Source: a virus
Strand: one strand, 5' to 3'
IMG/VR virus record: IMGVR_UViG_3300028840_006907
Span: 32,001-96,000 of that record
Length of the DNA stretch: 64,000 nt
Shown: in pieces, positions 20,312 to 54,857 of the stretch
Numbering within the stretch: the first letter of the stretch is position 1
Layout of the letters: the number at the start of each line of letters is the position of its first letter
Notes under the pieces: model-generated
Database searches by the model: none
The model's input: the letters and a program-made list of their open reading frames with translations, nothing else
What the model was told of the DNA's origin: nothing
Position numbers and translations under genes: made by a program

Positions 20312-20371
20312 GTGGCGCATATCCTGTTATAGTGGCGCATATTCTATTATAATGGCGCATATTTCAGTTCA
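20312..20371. repeat. tandem repeat, 20 bp unit x3 (TGGCGCATAT core)
   Basis: tggcgcatat at 20313, 20333, 20353. Confidence 0.7.
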
Positions 20372-20397
20372 AAGCTCTCAGAACCCAGTTCAAAGAA

Positions 20398-20628
20398 CAG
20401 GGAACAGGGAACTGAGCACAGGGAACTGAGCACAGGGAACCGAGCACAGGGAACCGAGCACAGGGAACTGAGCACAGGGAACTGAGCACAGGGAACTGAG
20501 CACAGGGAACCGAGCACAGGGAACCGAGCACAGGGAACTGAGCACAGGGAACCGAGCACAGGGAACTGAGAACAGGGAACCGAGCACAGGGAACTGAGAA
20601 CAGGGAACTGAGAACAGGGAACCGAGCA
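20398..20628. repeat. tandem repeat, 14 bp unit (cacagggaac[t/c]gag), about 16-17 copies
   Basis: Direct reading; two unit variants differing at one T/C position. Confidence 0.85.
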
Positions 20629-20872
20629 CCTGTATCTGTGATCTCGGAAAAGTTTCGGGAAAAAAATCGGGAACGGCTCAGGGCTGAGAAATAGGTATGA
20701 ATTTTTTTGGGGTATAATTTTTGGAGTTAAACAGTTGGGGAAATTGGAGTTATCTTATGTGAGGTGATGGGATAGTTTATGGAGGGTGAAAATTTTTTGG
20801 TATAGTTTGATGGAGAAACAGGTATAATACTTATAGGACGGAAAAATTTAAGTCTAATGGTTCGAGGATCTT

Positions 20873-37300: not shown

Positions 37301-38885
37301 ACTTTCTGATTTCACTAAAATGTACAATCCGTTATCAAAGACTTTATGGTTTAGCCCAAAAACCTATGAGAAGAGAGCAGAAATTGTTACCAGTGAAGAT
37401 GATCCAGCTTTAGCTTCATTGCAAAAGAACATTGCTAAGGATACAGTTTCATTTTCAAAACTCAGCATCTTCGATAAAGAATCCATTAGATCTCTGGCAA
37501 GTACCATCCGGTCAGGTTTATCAAAATTCAAAAAGGAGTTACCAAGAATGGCCTCTTTTAATCCAATCTATTTAACAGTAGAAGAAAAAGCCCTTATGGA
37601 TAAACAAGCTAAGGAAGAAGATCACTTTGAAAAACGTGTTAAATTTGTTTTTCCTGAAGGTGAATTGAATGATGCCAAAAATATGGTAACTCAGCTCAAA
37701 GAGAAGAAATTAGATGATGCATCGAAAAAAGCTCAGAAAGAATTATCAGAATTAATTAAAAATGTCACAAGTGCCTATGATGATTTCGATATAGGTAAAA
37801 TTAAAGCATTGGCAGAAAAAGAGGAGATTTCTGAATCAAAAGCTGCTGTTCGTTTAAAAAGAATAAAAGACTCATTGGCTAAATATGCTCTAAGTCAATT
37901 CATTCTTAAGTGGCAAGATGTCATAGACATGGGATTTAAAGATACTCCAAGAAAGAAAGGACCTTTGGGAGGACCGGAATCCCAAAAATATGATAAAATT
38001 TTGGAAATAATTGAAGAGGATGTACCTGAGTTATTTAAAGAGGCTCCTCCTGAGAAAGAAATAAAAGAAGCTCCTAAAGGCTTACCTACTCCTAAGGAAA
38101 TCAGAGAACGTATCGAAATGGAATTTGAAGAAGGATTTCCAGCACAAAAAGAAAGAGAATACAGAACTCTGAAGGACAAAGGTCATAAATTATTCAAAGA
38201 TCCTTCTGGGGCTGGTGGTGGCGGTGGCGGAAAAGGTAAAAGTCGCCCAAAACCTATAAAGAAACATCCTCCTGCCCATACATATGAAACACTTAAGAGT
38301 AATTTCAAAGAAGCTCTGAAAACAAAATCAGTTCATGACATAGTACTTAGTGAAATAGGCAGGTATTTACATAATGTGAGAAATTATGTGAAAGGTGGCT
38401 CTTATTTCGATGTGGATGATGTTGTTGCTGGAGTTGTCGATGTATTGAAAAATTTTAAAAAAGTCATCAAATCATTAAGAGTAACCATGGATCCAGGAGC
38501 TACTGCAGATATAAAACTGAAAGATGAAAAAGAGGCAAAACAACTTTTTAATAAATTATCAGATATTTACAAATTAATAGATATGATTGCTGCTGATGAA
38601 AGTGGGAAACCTGTTATAAAAATAGGTCCTATACCAGGTGATCTGAGTAAGATAAAAACTCAACGTGGTGAACCCGATACCTGGTTCCCGAAAGGTCTTA
38701 TGGAAGCTGTTCAAGTAAAAAAACGAGAAGAGATTGAAGAAGGAGCAAAAGAGAAAGCTCCTGAAAAGTCAGTTTCAGCAAAAAAAGTATCAGCACAATT
38801 TTTGGCTTTTAAATTAGCACATAAGTTTTCCTTTTCAGATTTACAAAAGATTGAAGGTCTGAAAGAAGATATAGATAAAAAATAA
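34341..38885 (+). CDS. giant K/E-rich protein (1514 aa), function unknown
   Basis: Single uninterrupted ORF; highly charged, probably largely helical; poly-Gly near C-terminus. Confidence 0.6.
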   Translation: MYSIDDFIQTVFSYTLQKQKFFAAAERALKKNLQSYIRPDFFGTSSGDVRLDNLLVSLANRLGEADVEDKRIFLEDAVSDFVSEEKADELRAILETKLERKHKIPEELADKFISKSGLLVDEEKKEFDRVKKDMVKLISGFIYGFFENKFKEFVRAKKKKEDIGREVAPDLEVLPDSELIDQAEKEQEWQEGLTKDLFGYINKNVPEKRRYAYKMILLKRFMVAPASRMGFVEMAEKTGIPKSSLEEWEKDLGRRLAEYLSAGGLGPKFVSEGGLYKKDVKVPDYKDVFKNKENSNDFKDFMEGKQPKTGKPMSEKVKKILELFAEGKDTKEIESQTDASIGQIKKLKSTHFSPWYKEWYAEMLKDVREATERIKKALMIINGETPPPASHEKYVNMAIAKKYPLELTVTFSANYDNQDLIKESDRVDPEKDPVDFKYKHYQVKLERTSRPRIEYTFDQKLTDKGDFEGSPRSSLVIEGNPGHEGLRRRLDEYVEQEMKPEGILPYGPSVKGRKPVQIPVEYVNESLDSTKTYDGSKKRRYRGFIDFADKYKGFMVKDQPHLTRVQEESKREEKKLLPKGGKNEIRKLIQHLKENIGDEMEETTPDKKKVEVWKKQIKELQDHLKKDSEKEIVDFVSKHKERFKFAVSEERMKNVRELMKLRELVENQEQRLLQRKMKGDPKDKDTVKLKEDIATNKDKITKLEKILEETKEPFPPPESAKVQKLLKELSDLGIKDRKLEEFLTSTDLQFFVNQVQGALAKEAQDNIAGVKKNKNMSDEEKKQEYEAIERKRGVKLNKFIELFEAVPEDMKKRLEKYKKADPSGYKKLEKKHGALLNWVNNPEKALSKVKQNLSTPKTLEAPKGKQESVVPMEEEDAKYMLNWLEAQLQGFDVIGERFGQAALKAEGLSPQERVKVEKQLKDTEKEFQDLRNRIGEMEGKGKATTSEIKDLKKDIPTYMRTIEGLKSSLSDSKESPAMIMAQVLTDRLSDFTKMYNPLSKTLWFSPKTYEKRAEIVTSEDDPALASLQKNIAKDTVSFSKLSIFDKESIRSLASTIRSGLSKFKKELPRMASFNPIYLTVEEKALMDKQAKEEDHFEKRVKFVFPEGELNDAKNMVTQLKEKKLDDASKKAQKELSELIKNVTSAYDDFDIGKIKALAEKEEISESKAAVRLKRIKDSLAKYALSQFILKWQDVIDMGFKDTPRKKGPLGGPESQKYDKILEIIEEDVPELFKEAPPEKEIKEAPKGLPTPKEIRERIEMEFEEGFPAQKEREYRTLKDKGHKLFKDPSGAGGGGGGKGKSRPKPIKKHPPAHTYETLKSNFKEALKTKSVHDIVLSEIGRYLHNVRNYVKGGSYFDVDDVVAGVVDVLKNFKKVIKSLRVTMDPGATADIKLKDEKEAKQLFNKLSDIYKLIDMIAADESGKPVIKIGPIPGDLSKIKTQRGEPDTWFPKGLMEAVQVKKREEIEEGAKEKAPEKSVSAKKVSAQFLAFKLAHKFSFSDLQKIEGLKEDIDKK

Positions 38886-38923: not shown

Positions 38924-39682
38924 TTGGAGACATCTGTGAAGTATAGCGTACTTGTACCCTACTATAAACGCCTAGGGCACCTACATAATACCTTTATTTC
39001 CTTTCTACACCATTATTCAGATAGAAATGATTATGAGGTTGTCATAGCAGAAGATTATAAAAATGTCCAGAATAAAAAAGACCATGACGGTCTATCAGAA
39101 ACCATTGAGAAATTCCGTGAAAAAATACCGATAATTCATTTAACTCTTTCTATGGAAACCTGGAATCCAGCTCATGGTTTTAATGAAGCTGCAAAGTGGG
39201 CTTCTGGTGAATATTTCGTTGTAACCAATCCAGAATGTTTCCATCAAGTGAACATACTGGCTGGACTCGATAAAGAATTTGAAGAAGACCCCAATGTCTA
39301 TGTTGTATGTGGTTGTATGAATTATGTCCGTTGTAATTTTTTTATTAAAAACTTTAATGATCTAAATGGAAAATTTCAGAGATGGTACCAACACTCAATA
39401 CATAGAGCAGCCCACTATCATTTCTGTTCAGCTATTTCAAAACAGAATTGGGTAAAAATAGGAGGATTCGATGAAGACTTTGCTATGGGTATAGCCTATG
39501 ATGATGTCGATTTTAAATTAAGCATTCAAAAAGCCAAGATACCCTTTCATATCCGGGATGACCTTCTTACTATACATATTGACCATGGTTCCTTCCCATC
39601 TCCTCCAAATGCTCAGAAATTAGTTAATCGAAATAGAATCACCTATCAAAGAAAATGGGAAGGAAGTAATGAATCTTACTAG
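38924..39682 (+). CDS. putative family-2 (GT-A) glycosyltransferase
   Basis: N-terminal YSVLVPYY and GGFDEDFAMGIAYDDVDF segments resemble GT2 signatures; start codon uncertain (TTG 38924 or GTG 38936). Confidence 0.5.
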   Translation: METSVKYSVLVPYYKRLGHLHNTFISFLHHYSDRNDYEVVIAEDYKNVQNKKDHDGLSETIEKFREKIPIIHLTLSMETWNPAHGFNEAAKWASGEYFVVTNPECFHQVNILAGLDKEFEEDPNVYVVCGCMNYVRCNFFIKNFNDLNGKFQRWYQHSIHRAAHYHFCSAISKQNWVKIGGFDEDFAMGIAYDDVDFKLSIQKAKIPFHIRDDLLTIHIDHGSFPSPPNAQKLVNRNRITYQRKWEGSNESY

Positions 39683-41762
39683 TTATACCGCAGCCGACAG
39701 TATCCCGATAAAATTGATTAAGAACTTTAAATTGTTAAAGTCCATGACAACAAAAGGAGTCATCTTACCAATCCATGTCCAGTTCATACCCACAAATAGA
39801 TGTAACATGAAATGTGGATTTTGTAGCTGTGCTGAAGATGACAGAAAAACAGAAATGTCCCTTAAAAATGCTAAGAAGATCATCAGAAAATTAAAAAAAC
39901 TCGGTACTCAATCCGTAACCATCACCGGAGGAGGAGAACCACTCCTTTATCCTCATCTCCAAGAATTGTTTTCTCTGTTTAAAGATGCCGGGATAAAAAT
40001 CGGTTTTGTTACCAATGGCCTCTTATTAGGTAAATGTACCTATGAAGATGTAACCTGGTGTCGGATTTCTAATTCTGATGAAAGAAAAATGGACATGGAC
40101 TATTATCACACAATAGCTTATGCTGTTGAAGATAACCCAAACGTGGACTGGGCCTTTAGTCATGTCGTTTCTCCAAAACCAAATATCTCCGAAATAAAAC
40201 GGATCATAGAATTTGCCAATCTCCATGATTTTACCCATGTCCGATTAGTAGCTGATCTATTGAATTATAAAGAAGTAGATTTAATGCAGTTAAAAATCAC
40301 TCTTCGAGATGAAAATGTCGATGATGATAAAGTCATCTATCAAAGTAGAAATACCCCGCTCAGAGGCGGAGACTGTTATATATGCTATCTTAAACCCATG
40401 ATAGGGGCTGACTGTAATGTGTACGCTTGTTGTTTAGAGGCTAATGAACCTGTATTAATCCAGAGAAATAACGAAAGGATGTATTTATCTATAAAGGATG
40501 TTGTTCCAGGGGATTATGCTTGTGAATATGGAAAGATTTTAAATGTGTTTCATAAAGAGGGTGAAGAAGGCTTGGAAATAGTTTTGCAAAATAATAGGAC
40601 TATTTATGTTTCGAAAGATCATCTTATGCTTAAATTGACAAACCCTGAAATTAGACATAAGAGAAAGAAGTTATTATCTGACTATGAATTAGATACAATA
40701 GAATCTTCTGAATTAAGAATTGGAGATTTACTTCCGGTCAAATATAAATATGATATTAGTGAAATAAAAGAAGATACTATATCTGAAGAAGAAGCAGAAT
40801 TAATAGGATATTATGTAGCTGAAGGTTGGTCCAATGAACGAACTTGTATAGTTGATAAAAAATATCCTACTAGAACTACCACTATAGGATTTATGCTAGG
40901 GAAAGAGTCAAGAGAATATATAAGAAGATTTGAAGAAATTTGTGATATTTTGAATCTAAATTTTTCTATGACTGAACGTAGAACTGGTATGCAGTATCAG
41001 ATAGGTGCACATAAACCCTACGATGACTTAATTGTACACTGTGGTAATAAAGCAGAATTAAAAAAGATCCCTCCTTTTATTTTAAACGGCTCTGATAAAA
41101 TAAAGTGGAAATTTATTCAAGGCTATTTTGGAGGTGACGGGAATTTTCAAACTCCTTCTAAAAGCTATGATGGTTTTAAAATGAGAATGAGTACTGTCAG
41201 TAGACAACTAGCTAATGATATAATTTATCTCTTTTGTACTTTAAATATTCATGCTTCTATGAGAGTTGAGAGACGTGAAGGAAAAATGATAATAGAAGGA
41301 AGAGAGGTAAATGCTAAAGATCGGTATCATATAAATATAGGGGGAGCCTATAATTTAGAAAAAGCCCCATTCCTAAATGTAATTCAAACAAAAGAAAGAA
41401 GTCCTAAAAGAGCCCTCGGTTTTTTGAAAGATGAGGATAAGGGCATTATGTTTGTACCAGTTAAAGAGATCAGAGAGAAAAAGTTAGGAAAATTAGTAGA
41501 CATTCAAGTGGAAGGTTCAAATAAATTTATATCTTCATTTGGTATAATAGTTCATAATTGTGGCGTCCAGTATGCTCTTAAAAAGCCTTCAAAGAATCTT
41601 CCTAAGAAACTGAGCCTAGGAAGTGCTTTTGATCTTGAGAAGATAATTGAGAACAGTAATAAGCCCCTGGACGGGAGCATGTGTTATCGATGCTATTATA
41701 GTAATTATAACAAGATACTAGGATCCATCCTGGATGATACCGATCATATGGAGTTTGTATGA
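39669..41762 (+). CDS. radical SAM enzyme interrupted by an intein
   Basis: CNMKCGFC (CxxxCxxC) and TGGGEPLL in N-extein; intein blocks described separately. Confidence 0.65.
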   Translation: MNLTSYTAADSIPIKLIKNFKLLKSMTTKGVILPIHVQFIPTNRCNMKCGFCSCAEDDRKTEMSLKNAKKIIRKLKKLGTQSVTITGGGEPLLYPHLQELFSLFKDAGIKIGFVTNGLLLGKCTYEDVTWCRISNSDERKMDMDYYHTIAYAVEDNPNVDWAFSHVVSPKPNISEIKRIIEFANLHDFTHVRLVADLLNYKEVDLMQLKITLRDENVDDDKVIYQSRNTPLRGGDCYICYLKPMIGADCNVYACCLEANEPVLIQRNNERMYLSIKDVVPGDYACEYGKILNVFHKEGEEGLEIVLQNNRTIYVSKDHLMLKLTNPEIRHKRKKLLSDYELDTIESSELRIGDLLPVKYKYDISEIKEDTISEEEAELIGYYVAEGWSNERTCIVDKKYPTRTTTIGFMLGKESREYIRRFEEICDILNLNFSMTERRTGMQYQIGAHKPYDDLIVHCGNKAELKKIPPFILNGSDKIKWKFIQGYFGGDGNFQTPSKSYDGFKMRMSTVSRQLANDIIYLFCTLNIHASMRVERREGKMIIEGREVNAKDRYHINIGGAYNLEKAPFLNVIQTKERSPKRALGFLKDEDKGIMFVPVKEIREKKLGKLVDIQVEGSNKFISSFGIIVHNCGVQYALKKPSKNLPKKLSLGSAFDLEKIIENSNKPLDGSMCYRCYYSNYNKILGSILDDTDHMEFV
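40431..41558 (+). mobile_element. intein with LAGLIDADG-type homing endonuclease domain (boundaries approximate; N-terminal Cys at 40428 or 40431)
   Basis: Starts CLEANEPVLI, ends GIIVHN followed by Cys; internal IGYYVAEGW and IQGYFGGDGNF motifs. Confidence 0.6.
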
Positions 41763-44019: not shown

Positions 44020-47018
44020 AGGGAAACCCCGCTCAGATGCAGGGAAGAAGATTTCATTAAGAAGTTTTAGGAAGAGCCCCGCAGAGGAGGAACCTCGCAA
44101 GATGCGGGGAAAAGGAACTTCAGGCAATTGGCTGGGATTAGCCCCGCGAAGGTGCGGGGAAAACAGTTTCCATGAACTATATTAGGGAGAGCCCCGTTGA
44201 CACGGGGAAAAACCCGTCTTTACTTAGTGAGATCGAGGAAGGAACAGCCCCGTTGATACGGGGATAAAATAATATGACTTTTACGAATCCTCTAGGGACA
44301 GCCCTGCAGAGTGCAGGGAAAAGTAACGTCTGGGAATTGTTTAGGATTAGCCCCGCGAAGGTGCGGGGAAAGCCATAGATTTTATATTGACACAGGAAAA
44401 ACCCCGGTATAGTCCGGGGAAAAGTACGTAATCAAGATGTAAGAGGATTAGACCCGGCGAGTCCGGGAAAAGATTGGCCCAATCACTATTAAGTAGGGTG
44501 GGATAGCCCCGCAGAATGCAGGGAATAGATGCCTCACTTCATACCACTGCGTCAACCCCAGTAGAGTCCGGGGAACATGAGTGTAAATCTCTGTCGTAGG
44601 TTCAACCCCGGAGAGATCCAGGGGAAATGGGTACAACTTTGTGTACAAGGGGTAGCCCCGGAGAAATCCGAGGAAAATGAGTGTAAATCTGTGTTGAGGG
44701 TCCAGCCCCGCTCAGTGCAGGGAATATTAAGGGTCAAAACCGGTTGCCCCTGCGTCAACCCCGGTGAAGTCCGGGGAACATGAGTGTAAATCTCTGTGGT
44801 AGGATCAACCCCGCAGAGTGCAGGGAAAAATTGAACTTTTTAATCAACCCTGTAACAGCCCCGGAGTCAGTTTTGACAAGTCCGGGGGAATATCACTTCG
44901 TAAAGGAGTGGCTGTCAAGGGGGCAACCCCACAGAGATGTGGGGGAAAGTAAGCCAACGTTCCGGCATAGGCATAGCCCCTGAATTTACAGAGGGCAATT
45001 TTTCCAGTGTCCAGAAGAAGATGCAGGGAGAACCCCGGAAAGTCCAGGGGAAAATGTGTCACAGAACAACTCTTTGTGATCTCCAGGGTGAACCTCGCAG
45101 AGGTGCGGGGGAAAAGTGTCAATGAATACCAGTATGAGTCAGCCCCGGTATAGCCCGGGAATAATTACTTCTAGTCTGATAGAAGGTGCAACCCCGGGAA
45201 GTCCGGGGAAATCGGTCATAGCCATCTGGACCAGGAAGAACCCCGGTGAGATCCGGGGAAAAGGACGTTTAAATCCTGACATAGTAGCTAACTGAGGCGT
45301 AGCTCCGGTCGGGTCAGCCCTGCAGAGAGCAGGGAACAAACATAGGTAATAAATCGGCACGTGACAGCCCCGCAGAGAGGCGGGGATATATAGCGTGAGT
45401 TGCAGGGTAAGGTTCAACCCTTGTTTACCAAGGGAAAAATACCGGCAGATAAGAATTTAGGATGACCCCCGGTGAAAGTCCGGGGAAAATAATTAATACG
45501 CAAAACAGCAGGGCCAGTCCCGCGAGATGCAGGGAATGTTCAGCCAGTTTGTGTAATATTTCAGGAGACGGTGGTGCAACCCTGTCAAGGACAGGGATAT
45601 GCAACATCTGTGGCTCTACGAGGATCAGCCCCGGCAAGTCCGGGGAATTATCTTTTTATAAATGCCAAAAATAACAGTTGGGAGGGGCCAATTCCGCTGA
45701 TGCAGAAAGACATTTCATAATTAATATATTTATGGAAGAGCCCCGGTGAAATCCGGGGAAGTCAAGTAATTACAGCTCGCTGACCACTGGGGGTAGCCCC
45801 GGTAAGATCCGGGGAAAAGTTTGTTTTGAAACAAACGCTAGGAACAGCCCCGCTCAGGTGCGGGAGAATCACTGCATATTTGGTTAATGGCCCCCCTGAG
45901 TCAATCCCGCTCAGGTGCGGGGAAAATAAAGAGATAGACTAATTCAATATGCAGGAAGAACCCCGCTATATGCAGGAAAATTTAAAAAGTATGGATATCT
46001 CCTTGAGTCAACCCCGGAGATCCAGGGAAATGTAGGCACTCGTTGTCCTTTGTCGAAGTGTGAAGGGCAAACCTCGTTGATACGAGGAACAAATTTAGTT
46101 TTACTTTTGAATAAAAGTGGTCAAGCCCCGCTCAGGTGCAGGGAATAGATAAGTATACCGACGATAGCCAGGACAGCACCTGTGGTTTAGCCCTGCATGT
46201 GCAGGGAATAGTTGAGTTGAAGATTGAAGAAAAAGATAAAGTAGGGTCAGCTCTGCATGTGCAGAGAATAGCCTTTCTTCAAGCGTTGACTTGGGAGTAG
46301 GTGGGGATCAGCCCTGCACATGCAGGGAATAGAATGGTGAATCAAATTCCATTTTGTCAAAGAACGGCGACAGCCCTGCCAGTGCAGGGAATATGATTTT
46401 AACGATGGTAAAATTGGGAAGGGGTCAGCCCTGCACATGCAGGGAATAGTCGCTAGTTCAAATCCAATCGCCCCGACAGGATCAGCCCTGCATACGCAGG
46501 GAATAGAAAATACTGACGATAAACTAGCGATATGGGATCAGCCCTGCATACGCAGGGATATAGCTTGACGAATGGCCGTTTTAATGCCAGGAGTAACCCC
46601 GCTGCGAGGAATAGTCATTTCAAATATATAGGTAAAGCCCCGCGAAAGAGCGGGGGTATAATATGGCGGATTTTGTTCTATTGGTGGAATCCGGGCCATC
46701 CCCGTAGATTGACACGGGGAGATCTTTTAGAAATCTACCAAGGTGCCTTTCCGGAGTCATCCCCGTATATACGGGGGAGATTTCAATTCAGGGAATTTCG
46801 GTACAAAATTGGTCGGTTTATCCCCGTATACACGGGGAATATTGTTTCAATAGGGCATAGCAGATCTAGGATCGGGGAATCCCCGCAGGGGCGGGGAACA
46901 TCTCGGATTTATTAATCAAATTCAAACGTTTTTCGGGGAATCCCCGCAGGGGCGGGGAACATTGTTTTAAGAGGTGGTAGTTACCTCGTAGGGGAATCCC
47001 CGCAGGGGCGGGGAACAT
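44020..47018 (-). CRISPR. CRISPR array 1, roughly 50 repeat-like units, strongly heterogeneous; leader-proximal repeat ggggaatccccgcaggggcggggaacat (28 nt, 3 identical copies)
   Basis: Periodic hairpin repeats with 23-33 nt spacers; leader-proximal copies at 46874, 46935, 46991; minus-strand reading matches the I-E TTCCCCGC-N4-GCGGGGAT form. Confidence 0.8.
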
Positions 47019-47127
47019 ACTAAGTCATAATGCCATTCAAATCAAAGGTTTATAGGAACCCTAATTTTCTACCAAAGAAAAATGTACTTGTCATGTATAA
47101 ATGTCAAAGAGCGTCAGAGAGAAATCC
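47019..47127 (-). promoter_or_regulatory. CRISPR leader 1, with a ~55-bp core shared with leader 2
   Basis: accctaattttctaccaaa...tataaatgtcaaagagc shared with 54587..54683; contains TTGACA on minus strand. Confidence 0.5.
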
Positions 47128-49359
47128 CTAGTGGATATACCGAATCCATTCATATCGAATTTTCATCGTTTTATAAGGAGCTTTTTTTCTCCCTGGAAAT
47201 ATGTTTCCTTCAAAAAGGAAAAATTTTTGAACAATTTTAAATTCAGCGTTTGATGGTGTCAAGCTCTGTGGTGCATAATCCGAACGCCAGTAATTATTAC
47301 AATATATAAATTTTTCTTCTCTGTCTTTTTGTATAAGGCCCGGAAACACCACTAAAACTATCTTTTCGTTTTCAATAACAATATCCCCTTGATAAATAGC
47401 TATTTCTAAATCCAGACCATCCTGCTCTATCACACGAGCATATTTCGAGAGTTTCCCATCAATCTTTACTTTAGCTTTAGGGGGAATATCAAAAGTTATC
47501 CATTCACCTTTTATGTCCTTAATGCTTTGAATAGGTTTTTTAACTGGAATTTCTTGAAAGACATGATCTTGGTATTCTGCTTTTTTAAGGATTTCTCCAT
47601 CTTTTTCCATATTAAGCAATAAAGCCTTTTCCATGATGTCTTTAAGTTCATAGAGATCTTTTTCAGTTAAGGGCTCTTTTGTTCCGAATACGATGGAACC
47701 TACATTCTCTAATCGAGCGATTTTATCAAAACCCTGTTTCCGGACAAAGTCTATGGTAATATGTTCTATTTTTCTATTTCTTGAAAGTCTTATGATTCTT
47801 ACAAATTCAGTTTTAATTGTGTCTTTGAAATTATCAAAACTTAAATGATCTTCTACGTAGGGATGATACAAATCCGCTATAAGACTTAATAAAATTTCTA
47901 TGTCTTCAGGTTTATCCTGTTTACGGTTGTAATCATAAGCTTTAATAATTTCTTGTCTCATTTCCATTAATATATCAGGAGCCATTATTTCACTTAAACT
48001 GGTAGATCCTTTTTTGTCCCGATAAAAGGGAGCTGTTGGAAGTAAGGGAATCCTGATAGCAGCACAAAGTTCTGACATTACAATTGAGGTTAAGAACAAA
48101 TTCAATCTGTCTGAATATAATGCCCTGATATTATTACGTTCTTCTTTTTTAATAGGTGGAACATAAATGTATAACCATATTTTATCTTTTTTAGGGTAAC
48201 ATCTGAAAATACGAAACATTATTTGAGAGAAGGTCACCTGACTCTTTCCATAACTTGTATTATGTAAAACAGCAGCAGGAGGCCAATCATACCCTTCATA
48301 GAATATTCTGCAAGATACGGCGACCCAGTATTTTTTATGATTACGTCTCAATAACTCTCTATTTTTTTTCTGAGTTTCCGGTGTGACTAAATCCAGTACT
48401 TTGGACGCAGGATATATTTCGTGAATAGCTTTTAAATATTTTTTAAGGGTTCCTTCCTCTCTGAACCGGTTCCCCATGTCAGGTAATATGACAATGTGTC
48501 TTTGATCTTTGTGCTCTTTCATATATCTAATGATCTGAGTAAGGGGATCTTTCCTATAGTGAGTGAAACGGAAATTGAATTCTTTGATTTTTATGATTGA
48601 GAGATAGTCATTTAATGGGATAACCCATTTTTCAAAATGATGTTTATAAGCATTGGGGACTATTTCTCCTCTGTCTGTGCGGTGGTAAGTAGCTGTATAA
48701 AAATTTACGTTACAAGTAGGTTCATGGATGGTACATACATCTCTGACAAAATCACCCAAATGAGTGGAATCTAGTGGGGTTGATTTTGAATGATGGCATT
48801 CATCTACATGTACAGTTAAATTTCTAAGGGCTTTCTTTTTTTCATAGTTGGTTAATTTTTCCCAGGTCATGACAAACCCTCTATGGGTAGCTGTAGCAAT
48901 AGGGCCTGTTATATGTTTTTCATTGTACGGGTATTTTCGAGGATCTGCTAAAAGGAATTCTTTAAGTCCTTTAATGGATTGAGGGTTTTCACTATTGAAT
49001 TTATGTTCTTTTGGTACTTCCCACAATCTTACCATACCTTTATATTTGATTTTTATTTGTCTATTTTGGGATCTGCAGAAATTTTCACCTATTTCTATTG
49101 TTGGTGCGATAAAGATATGTTTTCGAGTATTTTTAGATATTATGATTTCATCCAGGGATATGCATACTGCTAAAAAAGTTTTGCCGACTCCCCCTGGTGC
49201 ATCAAAGATCATGTATCTGAATTTTTTCCCATATTCTTTTGCATTGCATTGCCAGCCAGAGGGTATCATGATCCCTGATTCAAGTTTTTTATTATAGGTA
49301 CCAAGGTCAACCGGTTCTATTTTAATAGATTGCTGGAAAAGCGGTAATAGCTTTTTCAT
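47128..49359 (-). CDS. cas3: SF2 DExH helicase, Cas3-like, without HD nuclease domain
   Basis: Motif I FDAPGGVGKT, motif II VDECHH, motif III TAT, motif VI-like QIMFRIFR; sits between cas6e and leader 1; GAGAGGA SD. Confidence 0.5.
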   Translation of the reverse strand: MKKLLPLFQQSIKIEPVDLGTYNKKLESGIMIPSGWQCNAKEYGKKFRYMIFDAPGGVGKTFLAVCISLDEIIISKNTRKHIFIAPTIEIGENFCRSQNRQIKIKYKGMVRLWEVPKEHKFNSENPQSIKGLKEFLLADPRKYPYNEKHITGPIATATHRGFVMTWEKLTNYEKKKALRNLTVHVDECHHSKSTPLDSTHLGDFVRDVCTIHEPTCNVNFYTATYHRTDRGEIVPNAYKHHFEKWVIPLNDYLSIIKIKEFNFRFTHYRKDPLTQIIRYMKEHKDQRHIVILPDMGNRFREEGTLKKYLKAIHEIYPASKVLDLVTPETQKKNRELLRRNHKKYWVAVSCRIFYEGYDWPPAAVLHNTSYGKSQVTFSQIMFRIFRCYPKKDKIWLYIYVPPIKKEERNNIRALYSDRLNLFLTSIVMSELCAAIRIPLLPTAPFYRDKKGSTSLSEIMAPDILMEMRQEIIKAYDYNRKQDKPEDIEILLSLIADLYHPYVEDHLSFDNFKDTIKTEFVRIIRLSRNRKIEHITIDFVRKQGFDKIARLENVGSIVFGTKEPLTEKDLYELKDIMEKALLLNMEKDGEILKKAEYQDHVFQEIPVKKPIQSIKDIKGEWITFDIPPKAKVKIDGKLSKYARVIEQDGLDLEIAIYQGDIVIENEKIVLVVFPGLIQKDREEKFIYCNNYWRSDYAPQSLTPSNAEFKIVQKFFLFEGNIFPGRKKAPYKTMKIRYEWIRYIH

Positions 49360-49444
49360 TGTCTTTTTCCTCTCAAATAAGTCCTGGAAAGCCTTTTCAG
49401 GGGCTTTCCAGGATTAATGTACTGTGTATTCTATATCAACACTT

Positions 49445-49600
49445 TCAATCGTTTTTATCAATCTCCGTGGCTAATACCGACATAAATGACATTCCGGTTC
49501 CTCCTGGTAATTCAATAATAGAAGGTCTTTTGATGTTCTCTTCTAAATTCCTAGAAGCGAGTTGCCAAGAATAGGCTTTTATAGTTTTTGTATTATTCAT
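49445..49600 (-). CDS. small ORF (51 aa) between cas6e and helicase, unknown
   Basis: ATG at 49598-49600 with TGGAGA SD; no motif. Confidence 0.25.
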   Translation of the reverse strand: MNNTKTIKAYSWQLASRNLEENIKRPSIIELPGGTGMSFMSVLATEIDKND

Positions 49601-49628
49601 TTTAAAATCTCCATATAAAAGGTTTATT

Positions 49629-50273
49629 TTAATAAGATTTATACGGTGCAATAAGCATCATACCACATCCGAAACCTTTACTCTTACCAATTCCATTATA
49701 AATAGTATTCACAAAAAGATTTTTATTGACTACCTGAAGGACTCCTCGTAAATCAATACTGAAAAAAGATACAACTTTACCATCTTTTTTTTTGAATTTA
49801 CAGAATTGAAAAGATTGAACGGAATGCTTTTGAATCATATTTTTAAAACCGTAACTTTGGCCACGTTTCTGAAGCCAATTCTTTGAGGATTCGTGAGCAA
49901 TGAAATTCCAATTATAGGGTTCATCAAGAACTTTCATTTCATTTGCCAGATCCGTCATGATTGAAACCTTTTTCCTGGTTTTCAATTTACAAACTTCGGC
50001 ATTGAGTCTGAGATCGTATTGAAGAAATATTCCAGATTTTAAATTATTTAAATCGAATACTTTTGTTTGTGTAGTGTATTCGTCCTCTGGAGGATTTGGT
50101 TTCTTTTTTGATATGATATAAAGTTCACCATTATAGAGATAATAAAGGAAATCTCTTACCCTGTTAGATCTTTGATCACCAAAAAATTCCCAGACTTTTT
50201 GATGAAGCTCATATATACCTTCGGTGGGAGAATATCTTCTCAAGCTGTCACTGTAAATTTTACTCAGAAACAT
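49629..50273 (-). CDS. cas6e: Cas6e (CasE) crRNA endoribonuclease
   Basis: MFLSKIYSD..YELHQKVWEFF..RDFLYY and C-terminal GIGKSKGFGCGMM match recollected E. coli CasE; start moved to ATG 50273. Confidence 0.75.
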   Translation of the reverse strand: MFLSKIYSDSLRRYSPTEGIYELHQKVWEFFGDQRSNRVRDFLYYLYNGELYIISKKKPNPPEDEYTTQTKVFDLNNLKSGIFLQYDLRLNAEVCKLKTRKKVSIMTDLANEMKVLDEPYNWNFIAHESSKNWLQKRGQSYGFKNMIQKHSVQSFQFCKFKKKDGKVVSFFSIDLRGVLQVVNKNLFVNTIYNGIGKSKGFGCGMMLIAPYKSY

Positions 50274-50910
50274 TCGATACCTCCTTCCATCCCATATACT
50301 CAATTCGGGATCGGTATTGTTTGGGACCGGTTACCTGATCAAAACGTTGATTGCTTTTTACTATTTTGATACTGGTATCGGTACCTTCCCAAAATATTCG
50401 GTTCTTTTCACGCCCTTTAAGACTACCATTAAGAAATTCAGGAAGAGAGTACTGTTCAAACGCCTCTGAGAGGCTCTCAGCCTTAACGATCTTAGGATCG
50501 GGTGGTATGTCATAGGAACAGCATTTCCTTCCAAGAAAGGGGGTATAGATGGGCCTATTAAGGGCTTCCATTATTTTCTTCAAAGTATAGGGACAGTTTT
50601 CATTCTCCCATATACATACGGTAAAGATGGCATTGACTAGGTAAAATCTATTCGAGACAATTCCTGGTCCGACTCTGACAATATGGAAATCTTTTAGAAT
50701 AGTACCAGGATTATCTTCCCTACAGGCAAATCCTAGTTGGGCAATCTGAGTTAATTCTTTCACCATTTCTCTTGAGACTCCAAGAGAAGCAGCGATTAAC
50801 CCGCTTACGCCAGATTTGGTAGGGTGATCATCTGTCTTTCGGGTATTACCCTGAAGGGGGAGACCCCAGGCGGATAGAGTACCCGAAAGAAGGAATAATA
50901 AATAATTCAT
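50260..50910 (-). CDS. cas5e: Cas5e (CasD)
   Basis: LSGTLSAWGLP, PTKSGVSGLIAASLG, YTPFLGRKCC match recollected E. coli CasD; AGGAG SD. Confidence 0.75.
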   Translation of the reverse strand: MNYLLFLLSGTLSAWGLPLQGNTRKTDDHPTKSGVSGLIAASLGVSREMVKELTQIAQLGFACREDNPGTILKDFHIVRVGPGIVSNRFYLVNAIFTVCIWENENCPYTLKKIMEALNRPIYTPFLGRKCCSYDIPPDPKIVKAESLSEAFEQYSLPEFLNGSLKGREKNRIFWEGTDTSIKIVKSNQRFDQVTGPKQYRSRIEYMGWKEVSNVSE

Positions 50911-50933
50911 AATATTATAACTCCTGGTAACAA

Positions 50934-52019
50934 TTAGAAATCGATGAATTTAATAAGTTCGTTAAGTGATCCTTCTTTTGTGAGTACATTCAAGATCCTA
51001 TAATCCATTTCATGGTAACATGAATCAAAACTACTTTTCATGTCAAGAAGGGCTTTGACAGCATTTTCCATAACCGCAGGACCTTTAATAGGAGTATGGA
51101 AGGCTTGACAGAGACTTCGTGGGGCAGTTGGAGCTTTTTCGATCATAACGAATGCTGGCCATGTTTGACTATCAGCACATCTGTTTTTATTAGCTGAGGG
51201 GGATGAAGTGGTTAATACTTCGACTATCTGTCGGATGGTTTTGATAGCTAGTTCTTTATTACCTTGAAGATTTTTCGTTAAGAGCTTGGAATTGATTACA
51301 AAGAAACTATAATAGACACCCTGGGTAAAATAGAAATTATCTAGGTGACCTGAACCTTTGGTTCCTTCTAATCCAAGGTTATCGGTAGCTGTAAAATAGT
51401 CGGTTTGGACAGATCCTATATCATTGACAGTAAAAGCGAAATTTGAGGACAGTGAAGCTTCAACATCATATTGGGGCAGTTTTGCAATCATGCGACCGGT
51501 AAGGGCTGTTCTGATTCCTGTATTTTCTTTTAAAAAGAAGAATTCTTGATCAGTGGGTTTATGCCCCTCAATAATTTTGTCAATCAGTTCTTCAATATGT
51601 TGTCTTTCGCTCGGTTGAATTTTAATGGTTTCGGTTTTAAGAAGATCAACCTTTTTTTTCTTTTTCTTTGTATTTTTATCATCTTCTTTTTCAGTGTGCT
51701 TTTTGATATCAACAAAAGTACCAATAAATTTAAATGCGTATTCTTCAGCTTTTTTAGGTGATATTCCACCATCAATTAATCTTTTCTCGACATATTTTCC
51801 AATAAGAGGAGTCTGAAGACCTATATCGATTTCGCACCTTTCAAATAGAGCCTTGTTTAAATCATATTTTCGATTTTGTGAAGACGAATAACCTCGGTTG
51901 GTATCATTAAGTTTCATTGTTTTAGGACGTCCGTCCTGGCCTCGGTTTATGCTAGATACAGCTACACCAGTGAGAAGGTGAATTAACCAGTAGGGGTCTT
52001 TAATAATAGTTTTAGACAT
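50934..52019 (-). CDS. cas7e: Cas7e (CasC) backbone subunit
   Basis: SINRGQDG, SSSQNRK, ALTGRM, FTATDNLGLEGTKGSGHLD match recollected E. coli CasC. Confidence 0.8.
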   Translation of the reverse strand: MSKTIIKDPYWLIHLLTGVAVSSINRGQDGRPKTMKLNDTNRGYSSSQNRKYDLNKALFERCEIDIGLQTPLIGKYVEKRLIDGGISPKKAEEYAFKFIGTFVDIKKHTEKEDDKNTKKKKKKVDLLKTETIKIQPSERQHIEELIDKIIEGHKPTDQEFFFLKENTGIRTALTGRMIAKLPQYDVEASLSSNFAFTVNDIGSVQTDYFTATDNLGLEGTKGSGHLDNFYFTQGVYYSFFVINSKLLTKNLQGNKELAIKTIRQIVEVLTTSSPSANKNRCADSQTWPAFVMIEKAPTAPRSLCQAFHTPIKGPAVMENAVKALLDMKSSFDSCYHEMDYRILNVLTKEGSLNELIKFIDF

Positions 52020-52045
52020 AAATACTCCTTGATATTTATTATTTA

Positions 52046-53989
52046 TTATATGTTATTTGAATATTCTCTTTCCCAGTAGAACTTGACATCTTTGCTCCAG
52101 TGGGCATACCCTTCCATGAAACTGATGATGTTAAATCCTTCCATTCGAGAAACAACATCAGCAAATACTTTCCAGTTTTTTTGTATATCCGTTTTATTGA
52201 AACTCATCATTTCGTCAACATGTCGGCGGTTAATTTTTTGAGAACCCATTTGGGCACCGAAAGATTGAGAAAAATCCAGATCCTTAGCTTTAAAAACAAT
52301 TAGTAGAAGAGGTACGAAAAGAGTCTTCATATCTTCTGATCTTAAAGCAGGGAAATGCATAGACATTTCTAAAATAAAATTCAAATAAAGGTCTTCATGT
52401 TTTAAGATATCGATGTCAAAACATCGGGTAAATACCCTATGTTTTTCTGTATTTCTAATAGTCCCGTACCAGGACAGGAATGGTTTGGTAAAGACCTGGT
52501 TAAAATGAGGTAGGTTTAATTTCCTGTATTCGATATGGGCGAAATTCTCATATTCTAATGGTTGTAGTTTAAGAGGTTTAACAACTTTTTTATTTAAGGT
52601 TTCGATAAATTGTTCCTTAAAATATTTCTGTAAACCTCTCTTTTCAGTACCTACATTTTTTTCAAATGTATCGAAAGCTTTAACTACCATCTTTTCCAAC
52701 CATTTTTCGATATTATGATTCTTGAGAACTTCATAGAAGTATTCTTCAGTTTCTGTCAGAAATTCGTGAAATATTAAAGGTTCGGTTTTATCAGTTCCCC
52801 AGAACTTTCTTATATAATTACAGGTATACCATCCTATAAGATATGAGTGTTCTCTGATATTTAAAGTAAACGCACTATCTTTATAGAGTTCTTCTGGGAT
52901 ATCGAATTTATTTTCCTCCCATCCAAAGAGTTTGGCTTTAGCCATATTATAACCGAAAGTCCATAATCCGAAATCAGTTATTCCAAGATATTCTCGGTTC
53001 TCCATGAAATGACTCACCACTAAAGCTGGAGTTAATTTTTTAGCTGGTAGTAGATAGGTCACAAGATCGAGATGGCTGGTAAAGTCCAGGGGTTTCCGGA
53101 AACCTGTTTCTTTGCCTTTTATAATGGGTGAAAGGATATGACGTGGTTTGACATAACAGTTACCATAATTCCTCGTTTTTATCTTTCTAACCATTAATTT
53201 GGAATGATTGCCACAGATAGTACATGATTCATCAAATTTATCAAAGATAAGATGAATACGTAGAGGCATTTCCCAGAGCGGGTAATAAGGATTCATCTCA
53301 TCCAGGGAAACAGTAGCTTTGTTTTTACTATCAACGGTATCACTAAGCCATGGGAGTGTTACACCTTTTGGATTTCCTCCGAATTCAAACATGGTCTTTT
53401 TAATAATAACATTAGACCATATTGTTTCCCATAACGTGGAACCGGTAATAATAGTGGTAAGAGAACCATTGGCACCGGCTGTTATCGAAGTACGGTATCC
53501 TTGGCCTCCCATAATGGCACTGAGTTGATTAAGATAAAGGGCAATTGTAGCACAGGATTGGCAAAAAGTATGTATCTTTGCTTTTTGGAAGAAATCTTTA
53601 CCAGCTTTAATTGTCGCTGTCCCTGGAGTATCAAAGAGGAGATTACCAACATTTACGATTCTTTCAAGGTCCTGTGGCCGTTTATCCTGTAAAAAACGAG
53701 GACCTTTGCCATCTAGTTCAAAGAGTTTTGGTTTAAGTTTTTCTAGGATGGCTTTTTGGTTTGGTGCTTTTTTGAATAGTTTTTTCCATTCTTTCTTACT
53801 TGTAGGAGCAAGATAAGTGTTGAAAAAACCTATGAGAAGCCGTACACCTACAGCATTGAAATCGGGTCTACCGAAATCGAGAGCTATTATAGGGTTATTA
53901 GGTTTTGAAGTTATTTTGTAGGGTGGAATGTTTTCCCTGGTACCGTCTTTTCGGATGACGGGGATCCAAGGGTCCTTAATTACATTCAT
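52046..53989 (-). CDS. cas8e: Cas8e (Cse1/CasA) large subunit with C-terminal extension, possibly fused Cse2/Cas11
   Basis: N-terminal MNVIKDPWIPV, CQSCATIALYLNQ, ESCTICG match recollected E. coli CasA; 647 aa vs about 500 in CasA; GGAGGT SD. Confidence 0.8.
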   Translation of the reverse strand: MNVIKDPWIPVIRKDGTRENIPPYKITSKPNNPIIALDFGRPDFNAVGVRLLIGFFNTYLAPTSKKEWKKLFKKAPNQKAILEKLKPKLFELDGKGPRFLQDKRPQDLERIVNVGNLLFDTPGTATIKAGKDFFQKAKIHTFCQSCATIALYLNQLSAIMGGQGYRTSITAGANGSLTTIITGSTLWETIWSNVIIKKTMFEFGGNPKGVTLPWLSDTVDSKNKATVSLDEMNPYYPLWEMPLRIHLIFDKFDESCTICGNHSKLMVRKIKTRNYGNCYVKPRHILSPIIKGKETGFRKPLDFTSHLDLVTYLLPAKKLTPALVVSHFMENREYLGITDFGLWTFGYNMAKAKLFGWEENKFDIPEELYKDSAFTLNIREHSYLIGWYTCNYIRKFWGTDKTEPLIFHEFLTETEEYFYEVLKNHNIEKWLEKMVVKAFDTFEKNVGTEKRGLQKYFKEQFIETLNKKVVKPLKLQPLEYENFAHIEYRKLNLPHFNQVFTKPFLSWYGTIRNTEKHRVFTRCFDIDILKHEDLYLNFILEMSMHFPALRSEDMKTLFVPLLLIVFKAKDLDFSQSFGAQMGSQKINRRHVDEMMSFNKTDIQKNWKVFADVVSRMEGFNIISFMEGYAHWSKDVKFYWEREYSNNI

Positions 53990-54210
53990 ATGATACCTCC
54001 GCGATTTATGAATGGTTGCGGAAATTTAATTATTTATGTTTTTACTCAACTTATTTATGTTTTTTTGCTTAGCTGAGACTTTGATTTAATTTTTTAATTA
54101 ACCCATTAGTTATAAAGTTAATTATAATCTAAAATAAATATAAATGCAACATTTTTTCAAGTACTTTATATATAACTATAATATTTCGAATTGTTTATAG
54201 CATGAGAAAT

Positions 54211-54240
54211 ATTTCCTCCGTTTACACGGAGGAAATTTAG
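54211..54240 (-). terminator. hairpin CCTCCG-loop-CGGAGG at distal end of array 2
   Basis: Inverted repeat; followed on minus strand by A/T-rich sequence rather than a clean U-tract. Confidence 0.25.
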
Positions 54241-54264
54241 GATTATATCAGAGATGGGCTCTGA

Positions 54265-54586
54265 GACAGCCCCGGTAAAGTCCAGGGAAATAAAAATTAG
54301 TGATAATTCGGGAATCAGCAGGAGGAGAGCATCAGCCCTGCGTATGCGGGGAATAGTGTTATCGTCTTACAGGATGTAAAGCAGAGACAGCCCCGCGTAT
54401 GCGGGGAATAGAAATTAATACATCTCATAAAATCTAGCATCAGCCCCGCGTATGCGGGGAATAGTTATTTATCTATACTTCCTACAACTCCCATAACGCA
54501 TCAGCCCCGCGTATGCGGGGAATAGCTCGTTGGTTTTCCCATTCCACAAAAGTTCAACGCATCAGCCCCGCGTATGCGGGGAATAG
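54265..54586 (-). CRISPR. CRISPR array 2: 6 repeats (distal one degenerate), repeat gcatcagccccgcgtatgcggggaatag, spacers 25-33 nt
   Basis: Repeat copies at about 54265, 54329, 54385, 54437, 54498, 54559; 61-bp period for the three leader-proximal units. Confidence 0.85.
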
Positions 54587-54683
54587 ACTATAATATAATT
54601 AGTTGAAAATCAGAGAGTTACAAAGACCCTAATTTTCTACCAAAAAAAGTACTTGCCGTTTATAAATGTCAAAGAGCTTATCT
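54587..54683 (-). promoter_or_regulatory. CRISPR leader 2 with the conserved core
   Basis: Shares ~55-bp core with 47019..47127. Confidence 0.5.
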
Positions 54684-54857
54684 TTAAAGGTATAAATCCT
54701 CTTCATCCTCAGGAGCCAGATCTATATCTGAAAGAGTTCTGCTCCCACCGAAATCTAATTCTAATACTTCATCTTCTCCACCTGTATTAAAAAAATCATC
54801 TTCTTCACTTGGCTCTTTAAGAATCTCATCAGCATCGTATTCTTCGATTGGTAACAT
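54684..54857 (-). CDS. small highly acidic protein (57 aa), below ORF-track cutoff
   Basis: Hand-translated MLPIEEYDADEILKEPSEEDDFFNTGGEDEVLELDFGGSRTLSDIDLAPEDEEDLYL; immediately upstream of leader 2. Confidence 0.3.
   Translation of the reverse strand: MLPIEEYDADEILKEPSEEDDFFNTGGEDEVLELDFGGSRTLSDIDLAPEDEEDLYL

Follow-up and report, generated by a model that had tools for sequence, protein, structure and literature searches.

Layout of the locus and Cascade genes

The DNA analysed here, called the window, is a stretch of 64,000 nucleotides from the IMG/VR virus record IMGVR_UViG_3300028840_006907 (positions 32,001 to 96,000 of that record), and the subject of this report is a CRISPR-Cas locus of type I-E descent on its minus strand. 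Read from position 54690 to 44020, the order is leader 2 and array 2, cas8e, cas7e, cas5e, cas6e, a superfamily 2 (SF2) helicase gene, and leader 1 and array 1 (Table 1), by which the gene order and strand given in an earlier note, made from the sequence alone, were confirmed. The four Cascade subunits recognised in that note were assigned by profile searches to Cse1/Cas8e, Cas7e, Cas5e and Cas6e, with E-values from 1e-26 to 1e-55, so that the observation made in the note is correct and well outside the range of chance. Related loci are referred to below by working labels (L003, L004 and so on).

Table 1. Positions of the features discussed in the text (window coordinates unless a related locus is named; aa, amino acids; bp, base pairs; nt, nucleotides; ORF, open reading frame)
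Feature	Size	Position	Strand	Matches and remarks
Leader 2		54587-54690	-	promoter motif GCTCTTTGACAT...TTGGTAGAAAAT
Array 2	6 units	54262-54586	-	CTATTCCCCGCATACGCGGGGCTGATGCG and variants; covariance-model matches 20-39.6 bits
Terminator-like hairpin	11 bp	54211-54236	-	between array 2 and cas promoter region
cas8e-cas11e (fusion)	647 aa	52046-53989	-	Pfam Cse1/Cas8e 4.6e-48; TIGR02547 1.6e-33; PADLOC Cas8e 3.9e-55
cas7e	361 aa	50934-52019	-	PF09344 1.1e-52; PADLOC Cas7e 2.5e-53
cas5e	216 aa	50260-50910	-	TIGR01868 1.7e-35 (above cut-off); PF09704 1e-26
cas6e	214-224 aa by start codon	49629-50303	-	TIGR01907 3.9e-34 (above cut-off)
Small ORF	51-68 aa	49445-49651	-	no family match
Terminator-like hairpin	12 bp	49382-49413	-	between cas6e and helicase gene
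SF2 DExH helicase	743 aa	47128-49359	-	Pfam ResIII/DEAD only
Leader 1		47019-47125	-	same conserved promoter motif as leader 2
Array 1, leader-proximal part	18 units	46004-47018	-	first 3 identical (ATGTTCCCCGCCCCTGCGGGGATTCCCC), then blocks of other repeat types
Array 1, distal part	~37 hairpin units	44020-46003	-	period ~50 nt
Cys-rich ORF	121 aa	43618-43983	-	directly downstream of array 1
HD phosphohydrolase		32760-33410		stand-alone
HNH endonuclease		31839-32441		
Solitary repeat-like unit		13648-13677	+	CCCCGGatttaCCGGGG + CTGTCTCT; covariance model 20.7 bits, E=7e-5
ORF between cas6e and helicase gene, related loci	~200 aa	L004 9396-10004; L005 9399-10004; L010 9405-10004		
ORF after helicase gene, related loci	~110 aa	L004 12289-12618; L005 12307-12639; L010 12274-12606		faint helix-turn-helix matches
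Array of related lineage	~16 units	L031 1667-2449; L032 197-979		spacers 17-22 nt (mode 19); stems different from those of the window

Cas7e scored 155.9 bits against TIGR01869 of NCBIfam, below the cut-off of 178, and passed in Pfam. Cas5e consisted of the Cas5 domain only, with no HNH or other added domain, and in Cas6e, which appears catalytically intact, the catalytic His (aligned with 'LHQGLW' of E. coli CasE, 4dzd/4qyz_K) and the G-rich loop were kept. Family profiles of Cas8e reached only residues 1-380 of the 647 aa, and ordinary Cse1 proteins covered just 45-73% of the window protein in alignment. In its structure model, a Cse1 body with a four-helix bundle (residues ~1-470) was followed by a Cse2/Cas11 fold at residues ~481-646, with no further domain, and the long form (647-664 aa) was seen again in relatives. 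Judged from the model, the small subunit Cas11e (Cse2) is present as a fusion to the C-terminus of Cas8e, a feature overlooked in the earlier note. E. coli Cascade contains two free Cas11 copies; the fusion would therefore give each complex one built-in Cas11.

The gap between cas6e and the helicase gene measures ~270 nt in the window, with the small ORF and a strong hairpin, and 58-80 nt in L003 and L009. The small ORF, which has no counterpart in these closest relatives, is probably not a component of the system and was rejected as such. A 9-bp hairpin (TCCGC...GCGGA; 53998-54022 in plus-strand coordinates) just 5′ of the cas8e start overlaps the GGAGG ribosome-binding site and might control cas8e translation.

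The helicase gene

The gene that follows cas6e had been described as a Cas3-like helicase, and this was not borne out. Its product carries the helicase motifs APGGxGKT, DECHH, TAT and QxxxRxxR, with the ATPase motifs kept and no nuclease domain, and Walker A stands at residue ~57, too close to the N-terminus for an HD domain to precede it. No NCBIfam model was matched, the PADLOC Cas3 model gave 13.8 bits (E=0.006), and the best solved relative of the family profile was archaeal XPB/Rad25 (6e-5). An assignment to Cas3 was rejected, as no Cas3-specific profile matched and Cas3 was not the closest fold. Behind the helicase core lies a beta-rich C-terminal domain (residues ~600-743).

A word-indexed search of 5.8 billion proteins returned only eight relatives of the helicase, and those with 33-59% identity, from five loci besides the window, were all encoded directly after cse1-cas7-cas5-cas6. 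The helicase and Cascade appear to be linked under purifying selection, because the gene order is shared by these five other loci at such identities. The Cascade-linked clade, confirmed at six loci (the window, L003, L004, L005, L009 and L010), is rare. A further homologue (P0008, locus L006) has no C-terminal domain and does not lie beside cas genes. An exhaustive profile search gave 1180 more distant relatives, few of which cover the C-terminal domain; most of the best 150 of the 1180 align to the helicase core alone. PHROG 16 'DNA helicase' was matched by 8/9 sampled distant relatives, and sixteen relatives on IMG/VR contigs (20-28% identity) had no Cascade genes nearby. On these comparisons, the helicase belongs to a family occurring on large viral contigs, and the extra C-terminal domain is largely confined to Cascade-linked helicases. 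The gene would then be a co-opted phage helicase, presumably docked to Cascade by its C-terminal domain.

Two additional conserved ORFs, absent from the window, were observed in L004, L005 and L010, one between cas6e and the helicase gene and one after the latter (Table 1), together with a regulator with several winged helix-turn-helix domains upstream of cse1 in these more distant loci; neither the ORFs nor the regulator gave a significant Pfam or PDB match. The ~200-aa ORF, with the motifs CYLTLCGLQ, GIDRDR and IYLDTTNFVG, is vaguely Rossmann methyltransferase-like, and was rejected as a candidate Cas3″/HD protein for lack of any Pfam or PDB signal.

Adaptation and nuclease genes

That no cas1 or cas2 lies near the locus was upheld. 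Cas1 was not found in a profile scan of all window ORFs of at least 250 aa, nor were Cas1, Cas2 and Cas4 in the precomputed Pfam annotation from window position 40934 to ~72000; no cas1 or cas2 was present in the 64-kilobase (kb) window, in the 8 kb past its high end or in the five related loci, which had no cas4 either. Neither Cas3 nor an HD nuclease was found at the locus, where the helicase matched no such profile, and none of the six operons had a nuclease gene inside. Our reading is of a type I-E derivative in which Cas3 and the adaptation module have both been lost.

At 63317-64000 (minus strand, running past the window), an OB fold (tRNA_anti-codon) is combined with an HD domain in a protein of 317 aa, which is similar to a YhaM-type nuclease or phosphohydrolase. 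Its gene lies ~10 kb away from the cas operon, and no link to the CRISPR locus was shown.

Leaders, arrays and repeat hairpins

In both window leaders and in those of L004, L005, L009 and L010 (alignment A6), GCTCTTTGACAT was followed after ~20 nt by TTGGTAGAAAAT and then by a conserved stretch of ~55 nt up to the first repeat. The motif pair is consistent with a -35 element plus an extended -10 element, and both arrays are apparently driven by these conserved leader promoters.

Units were located with a covariance model built from 17 gap-free units and run unfiltered over the 64 kb. Array 1 yielded 53 minus-strand units, 46 of them at E<0.01, and array 2 yielded 6. A few long-loop units escape the model, and array 1 totals ~55-57 units. 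The two arrays of the earlier note are both present, and the leader-proximal repeat quoted there occurs three times, but array 1 is no ordinary array: its ~55 units are heteromorphic and its spacers mostly far below the 32 nt of type I-E. Only at the start of each array were repeats identical (the first three in array 1, the initial two or three in array 2), and uniform ~29-nt repeats with 32-33-nt spacers were likewise confined to the first units of each array. The remaining units form blocks with stems such as CCCCGC/GCGGGG, CCCCGT/ACGGGG, CCCTGC/GCAGGG, CCCCGG/CCGGGG and CCTCGT/ACGAGG, further examples being CCCTTG/CAAGGG, CCCTGTC/GACAGGG and CCCCACA/TGTGGGG, with 13 distinct 3′-stem arms and ~22 left/right combinations in all, loops of 3-6 nt and an 8-nt 3′ flank (handle) ending in CC(N). 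Unit 4 (ATATTCCCCGTGTATACGGGGATAAACCG) differs at 3/29 positions from the I-E repeat of Proteus mirabilis (from an array with a 61-nt period), which ties the array units to genuine I-E repeats.

Base pairs were counted on a gap-free subset (A5) and not on the MAFFT alignment of 57 units, in which variable loops were misplaced. In the subset, 99% of the cells were paired and double substitutions occurred in four of the six pairs, a result reached by 0/500 shuffles. Over the 57 units, a unit's own arms paired 6/6 in 91%, versus 38% for arms combined across units (0/10000 permutations as high). The hairpin is under selection and is kept by compensatory changes. The same unit architecture with quite different stems was also found in L009, L003, L005 and L031. 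Plus-strand ORFs across the array (e.g., 46532-46915) were rejected as genes, being by-products of repeats rich in guanine and cytosine (GC).

The solitary repeat-like unit at 13648-13677 was the sole credible covariance-model match outside the arrays in the 64 kb; it is intergenic, lies 30 kb from the locus and is preceded by a TTGACT-17-TATAAT promoter-like site (13606-13636). Its handle CTGTCTCT is identical to that of two array-2 units, and the 20 nt following it had no other match in the window. A 12-mer, CGTTCTTTGACA, identical to the -35 motif of the L003 leader, was observed in a spacer of array 1 (46355-46366, minus strand); it could be the remnant of an internal leader and would then hint that array 1 consists of concatenated arrays.

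Spacer lengths and evolution

Spacer lengths, taken as the gap between covariance-model matches, spanned 15-35 nt with a mode of 19 (19 nt, n=16; 20-21 nt, n=5; 23-28 nt, n=14; 30-35 nt, n=13), and their GC content was 38% versus 34% for the genome. Long spacers lie near the leader. The spacers of array 2 measure 32, 32, 24, 26 and 35 nt and the leader-proximal ones of array 1 mostly 25-34 nt; distal ones are mostly of 19-21 nt, and the 19-nt class dominates the distal two-thirds of array 1. Among the relatives, at least 41 CCCAC/GTGGG units were counted in L009, which are heterogeneous and have spacer classes of 20-23, 26-28 and 30-35 nt, L003 has ~11 very degenerate units, and L005 mixes 24-nt and 32-nt spacers. 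E. coli Cascade loses one Cas7 for every 6 nt cut from the spacer, natural I-E spacers being 31-33 nt long (PMC5159557), and the three length classes of the window would be compatible with complexes of six, five and four Cas7, as a reading of the lengths and not as a result.

Units 38-43 (44548-44830) arose by tandem duplication of a two-unit block and hold three spacer variants, ACCACAGAGATTTACACTC, TCAACACAGATTTACACTC and ACGACAGAGATTTACACTC; a tandem duplication with variant spacers is not a product of Cas1-Cas2. The spacer at 45602-45620 (CGTAGAGCCACAGATGTTG) is identical at 17/19 positions to one of L031 (CGCAGAGCTACAGATGTTG), a value reached by 0/500 shuffles, and the repeats flanking the two differ; all other window spacers were not recognisably related to those of L031. 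Between the window and L003, a stretch of 23 nt is identical (E=2.7e-8) and a ACAGAGAT(T)TACACTC motif recurs; beyond these, scores were at shuffle level, and broad spacer conservation with L003 was rejected. Array structure and spacing thus appear strongly conserved and most spacer sequence not, with at least one spacer that is. The frozen spacer set suggested in the earlier note is in keeping with repeats that have diverged, spacers that were duplicated and a single spacer that is conserved.

A related array with no cas gene in the adjoining 1.6 kb

In L031 and L032, a lineage ~72% identical to the window in the DNA of the flanking genes, a transfer RNA (tRNA) gene, tRNA-Arg, is followed by ~16 hairpin units, the Cys-rich ORF and a sulfotransferase gene, the last two as in the window. 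No cas gene lies in the 1.6 kb that the L031 contig contains upstream of the units. Such an arrangement suggests that a short-spacer array may occur without an adjacent Cascade operon and that some of what is here called array 1 is possibly a module of its own. Perhaps the distal short-spacer part is an older element of the phage lineage, next to which the proximal array and the cas operon now sit.

The counterpart of the Cys-rich ORF in the same position is 55% identical in L003 and ~72% identical in L031/L032. Three database homologues and no Pfam match were found for it, public gene calls have only a 54-aa ORF there, and its link to the CRISPR system is uncertain.

Comparison with described systems

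Canonical type I-E systems (E. coli, T. fusca) share with the locus Cas8e, the Cas11e fold, Cas7e, Cas5e and Cas6e, the order cas8-(cas11)-cas7-cas5-cas6, 29-nt repeats that form a 6-bp GC hairpin and carry a handle of the ...AACCG type, and a 61-nt period at the leader end. The window differs in the absence of Cas3 (neither HD domain nor Cas3-type helicase) and of Cas1-Cas2, in the fusion of Cas11 to Cas8e, in its heterogeneous repeats and in spacers that are mostly 19-28 nt long versus 32-33 nt. Of the constituents of type I-E, then, Cas8e, Cas11e and Cas7e/Cas5e/Cas6e were found, and Cas3, Cas1e-Cas2 and a uniform array were not. The type IV-A set (Csf1/Csf2/Csf3/Cas6 with a DinG XPD-like helicase) was not found either.

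Type IV-A systems (Csf proteins with CasDinG, mainly on plasmids) are nevertheless alike in being borne by mobile elements, in having no adaptation or nuclease genes and in encoding an SF2 helicase with a Cascade-like complex. A helicase-dependent binding and silencing, as described in passages on type IV-A (PMC11656645, PMC12669027), would be shared only by the analogy proposed here. The differences are that the window effectors are of type I-E and not Csf, and that its arrays are far longer and heteromorphic.

CRISPR systems of huge phages without adaptation genes are known, among them the I-C variant of Al-Shayeb et al. 2020 (PMC7162821), which likewise resides in a very large phage genome, has no Cas1/Cas2 and has Cas3 replaced by an unidentified helicase. 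That system is I-C-like, with no Cas6 and with processing by Cas5d, and no heteromorphic array was described for it (PMC7162821); the window has a type I-E set with Cas6e and the Cas8e-Cas11 fusion. In the 2025 classification, I-E2 (Cas5-HNH), I-E3 (PD-(D/E)xK-Cas11) and the I-E CRISPR-associated transposons (CASTs; I-E5) are listed (PMC12669027), and its passages selected by term name no I-E variant in which a helicase stands in for Cas3. As there described, these variants resemble the window in having an I-E Cascade with Cas3 lost or replaced (PMC12669027). Unlike I-E2 and I-E3, the window has a Cas5 without HNH and a Cas11 without PD-(D/E)xK, and its replacement for Cas3 is a nuclease-free helicase; unlike in I-E CASTs, no Tn7, Mu or telomeric transposon genes were seen. 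Transposase families were absent from the Pfam annotation for 40934 to ~72000 and from the larger ORFs elsewhere, with some of the small ORFs at window positions 1-40 kb covered.

In engineered short-spacer E. coli Cascades (Kuznedelov et al. 2016, PMC5159557), spacers cut by 6, 12 and 18 nt led to complexes with fewer Cas7, and the 25-28-nt and 19-21-nt classes of the window are proposed to follow the same principle. Those lengths are artificial, whereas the window mixes lengths naturally in one array, a feature that recurs in relatives. The 19-nt guides may only bind, because interference in E. coli needed spacers of more than 20 nt (PMC5159557). Viral mini-arrays, solitary repeats and RNA anti-CRISPRs are alike in placing repeat-like hairpins on a mobile element, to which the solitary unit with its promoter-like site and the short L031 contig with no cas genes correspond, and unlike in that the ~55 units of the window stand beside a complete Cascade operon and include at least one conserved spacer.

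Proposed mode of action and alternatives

We consider it somewhat probable, composition and mode of action being taken jointly, that the locus is a nuclease-free and adaptation-free I-E derivative, in which inherited guides are loaded as CRISPR RNAs (crRNAs) into Cascades that interfere with the assistance of the helicase and without cutting. Long array transcripts would be cut by Cas6e into ~60 crRNAs of several lengths, and these would assemble into Cascades with six, five or four Cas7, the single fused Cas11 suiting the shortest spacer class. Cascade would bind DNA and recruit the dedicated helicase, and interference without cleavage would follow from a block of transcription or replication or from R-loop remodelling, like that by CasDinG in type IV-A. 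The guide set would be inherited, growing by tandem duplication and drift and not by Cas1-Cas2, although the three identical leader-proximal repeats would allow for an occasional acquisition in trans. We infer crRNA processing, the stoichiometry of the complexes, the recruitment of the helicase and what happens at the target. As a precedent, interference with a helicase, no nuclease and no adaptation module is described for type IV-A in the passages cited (PMC11656645; PMC12669027).

Several points weigh against this proposal. The spacer search foreseen in the earlier note was run against the window, INPHARED, PLSDB, IMG/VR and Joint Genome Institute (JGI) metagenomes, and no target was found. 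With ~58 spacers, the best matches in the array-masked window, outside which about 86% of the genome lies, were of 12-17 nt, which is chance level, and nothing rose above chance in all the related loci fetched; the whole of array 1 had no match among INPHARED phages at E<=1 and, among PLSDB plasmids at the same threshold, only repeat similarity to Proteus I-E arrays; five long spacers (with every sixth base masked) and the conserved 19-mer gave no exact-pattern match in IMG/VR; and a search of JGI metagenomes with one spacer gave back nothing but the array, in a sister assembly. Despite the ~72% DNA identity of the flanking genes, the spacers of the window and those of L031 are almost all different, and no cas genes lie in the 1.6 kb upstream of the L031 array, which is all that the contig holds there. 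Most spacer sequence seems unconserved, which would suit a decoy or fast turnover as well as fixed guides. The structure model of the helicase is only moderate (predicted local distance difference test score, pLDDT, 66.9), its binding to Cascade is presumed, and a nuclease partner could possibly be encoded elsewhere in the ~470-kb genome. A strict 6-nt quantisation of spacer length was dropped, as a Rayleigh-type test did not separate 6 from 7 nt.

A related reading, which we put forward tentatively, stresses a natural 'mini-Cascade' of a clade of huge phages, with a single fused Cas11, 19-nt spacers (four Cas7), a co-opted helicase in the place of a nuclease and a vertically inherited array that evolves as a structured-RNA family, keeps its hairpin by compensatory change and grows in tandem. 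Such a system would be a type I-derived counterpart of type IV-A, reached by convergence, and the first in nature to build Cascades of several stoichiometries out of a single transcript. Its use would be the programmable silencing of host or rival genes or the sabotage of a host I-E system.

It is unlikely that the array, or at least its distal part with 19-nt spacers, acts as an RNA decoy (an RNA anti-CRISPR) soaking up host Cas6e or Cascade into crippled complexes that are too short. Divergent repeats would on this account cover several host repeat types and resist recombination, and such repeat RNAs reportedly inhibit CRISPR (work attributed to Camara-Wilpert et al. in 2023). The conservation between the window and L031 of unit architecture and spacer length, and mostly not of spacer sequence, would be expected of a decoy, and so would the L031 array with no cas genes in its upstream DNA, the solitary unit with a promoter-like site of its own, the likeness of single units to genuine bacterial I-E repeats and the failure of the searches to find targets; viruses carry mini-arrays and single repeats (PMC11656645). 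A complete Cascade of its own, however, with an intact-looking Cas6e, lies directly upstream of the array and is co-oriented with it, and the spacer conserved at 17/19 positions while its repeats diverged, together with the duplicated spacer family, argues that some spacer sequences matter. Nor was a host with matching repeats identified: when 185,579 genomes were searched with the leader-proximal repeat, the one isolated match, in Actinomyces bowdenii (an unrelated high-GC actinomycete), was judged to be due to chance.

Destructive interference, with the helicase as a Cas3′-like motor and the nuclease supplied from elsewhere in the phage or by the host (e.g., host Cas3, or an HD or HNH protein), is more doubtful still. 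Split Cas3′/Cas3″ arrangements occur in other type I subtypes, the window encodes stand-alone HD proteins (63317-63934 onward; 32760-33410) and an HNH endonuclease (31839-32441), and the conserved ~200-aa ORF of the more distant relatives lies between cas6e and the helicase gene. The helicase, however, was not Cas3 by any profile or fold ranking, 0/6 loci had a nuclease gene in the operon, no nuclease signature was seen in the ~200-aa ORF, which the window, L003 and L009 do not have at all, and the HD and HNH genes of the window lie 10-20 kb off and are of general nucleotide-metabolism or homing types. A decaying I-E remnant, dead and for that reason degenerate in its repeats, is very improbable and largely refuted: degenerate repeats, missing adaptation and nuclease genes and the lack of targets would suit it, but all five genes are intact and keep their order across loci at 33-59% identity, the catalytic and ATPase motifs and the leader promoters are conserved, compensatory changes maintain the hairpin, and two lineages have kept a spacer length of 19 nt.

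The observation is genuine and, in the helicase, the fusion and the arrays, more unusual than the earlier note held; the labels 'phage' and 'interference' are less certain. Should helicase-assisted, non-cutting interference be correct, the locus would add to type IV-A a second, independent pairing of a Cascade-type effector with a nuclease-free helicase, and 'bind plus motor' would emerge as a solution that mobile elements have arrived at repeatedly. It would offer a compact I-E-derived scaffold of four genes with Cas11 built in, which may work with 19-20-nt guides. The arrays would show what becomes of a CRISPR array after long evolution without Cas1-Cas2, with structure and spacing kept, sequence not, and one spacer conserved more strongly than its own repeats; this would make both the question of guide or decoy and the requirements of Cas6e and Cascade directly testable. 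CRISPR finders based on repeat identity would miss most of the 3-kb array, and similar loci may therefore be under-counted.

Genomic setting and further features

The window DNA is identical to stretches of JGI contig Ga0180437_10000019 (388,651 bp), of the sister assembly Ga0180438_10000010 (469,541 bp) and of Logan contigs, and window proteins are also recorded on a 469,617-bp contig (NCBI and ENA among the listed sources). The carrier element is thus very large (388-470 kb), and it is rich in orphan ORFs. Cas7e had no match in the IMG/VR copy searched, where the locus was not found, and neither the locus DNA nor the Cas8e protein had a relative in INPHARED.

A huge phage is the likeliest carrier, as suggested by a large element crowded with orphan ORFs, by its intein and homing endonuclease, by the occurrence of helicase relatives on viral contigs of 60-467 kb, and by the Apyc1-like, CCA-adding-enzyme and tRNA genes of related loci; 'phage-borne' is to be taken as a deduction from these. 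The phage-like surroundings claimed in the earlier note accordingly stand as regards a very large element dense in orphan ORFs, but no virion or packaging gene (capsid, portal, terminase, tail) was found among the 30 window ORFs scanned.

The GC content of the window is 33-34%; no tRNA gene and no Rfam match was found in its 64 kb, and most of its ORFs have no family assignment. Recognisable genes encode radical-SAM enzymes (one with an intein), a glycosyltransferase, a methyltransferase, a sulfotransferase, an RNase T-like exonuclease, NUDIX and HD proteins, a lipase, a DUF932 protein and the HNH endonuclease. Two tandem-repeat arrays, at 19573-19914 (77 nt x 4.4) and 20404-20629 (14 nt x 16), coincide with a flip of gene orientation from minus to plus and a sign change of GC skew, and the region (19573-20629) may be a replication origin or a regulatory region. 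The radical-SAM gene at 39669-41762 (plus strand) encodes 697 aa with weak intein and LAGLIDADG matches; its homologue in L003, L031 and L032 has 322 aa, so that the gene of this genome probably contains an intein insertion. The ORF at 34341-38885 (plus strand), of 1514 aa and without a Pfam or PHROGs family, shares along its whole length 65% identity with a 1540-aa protein of L003.

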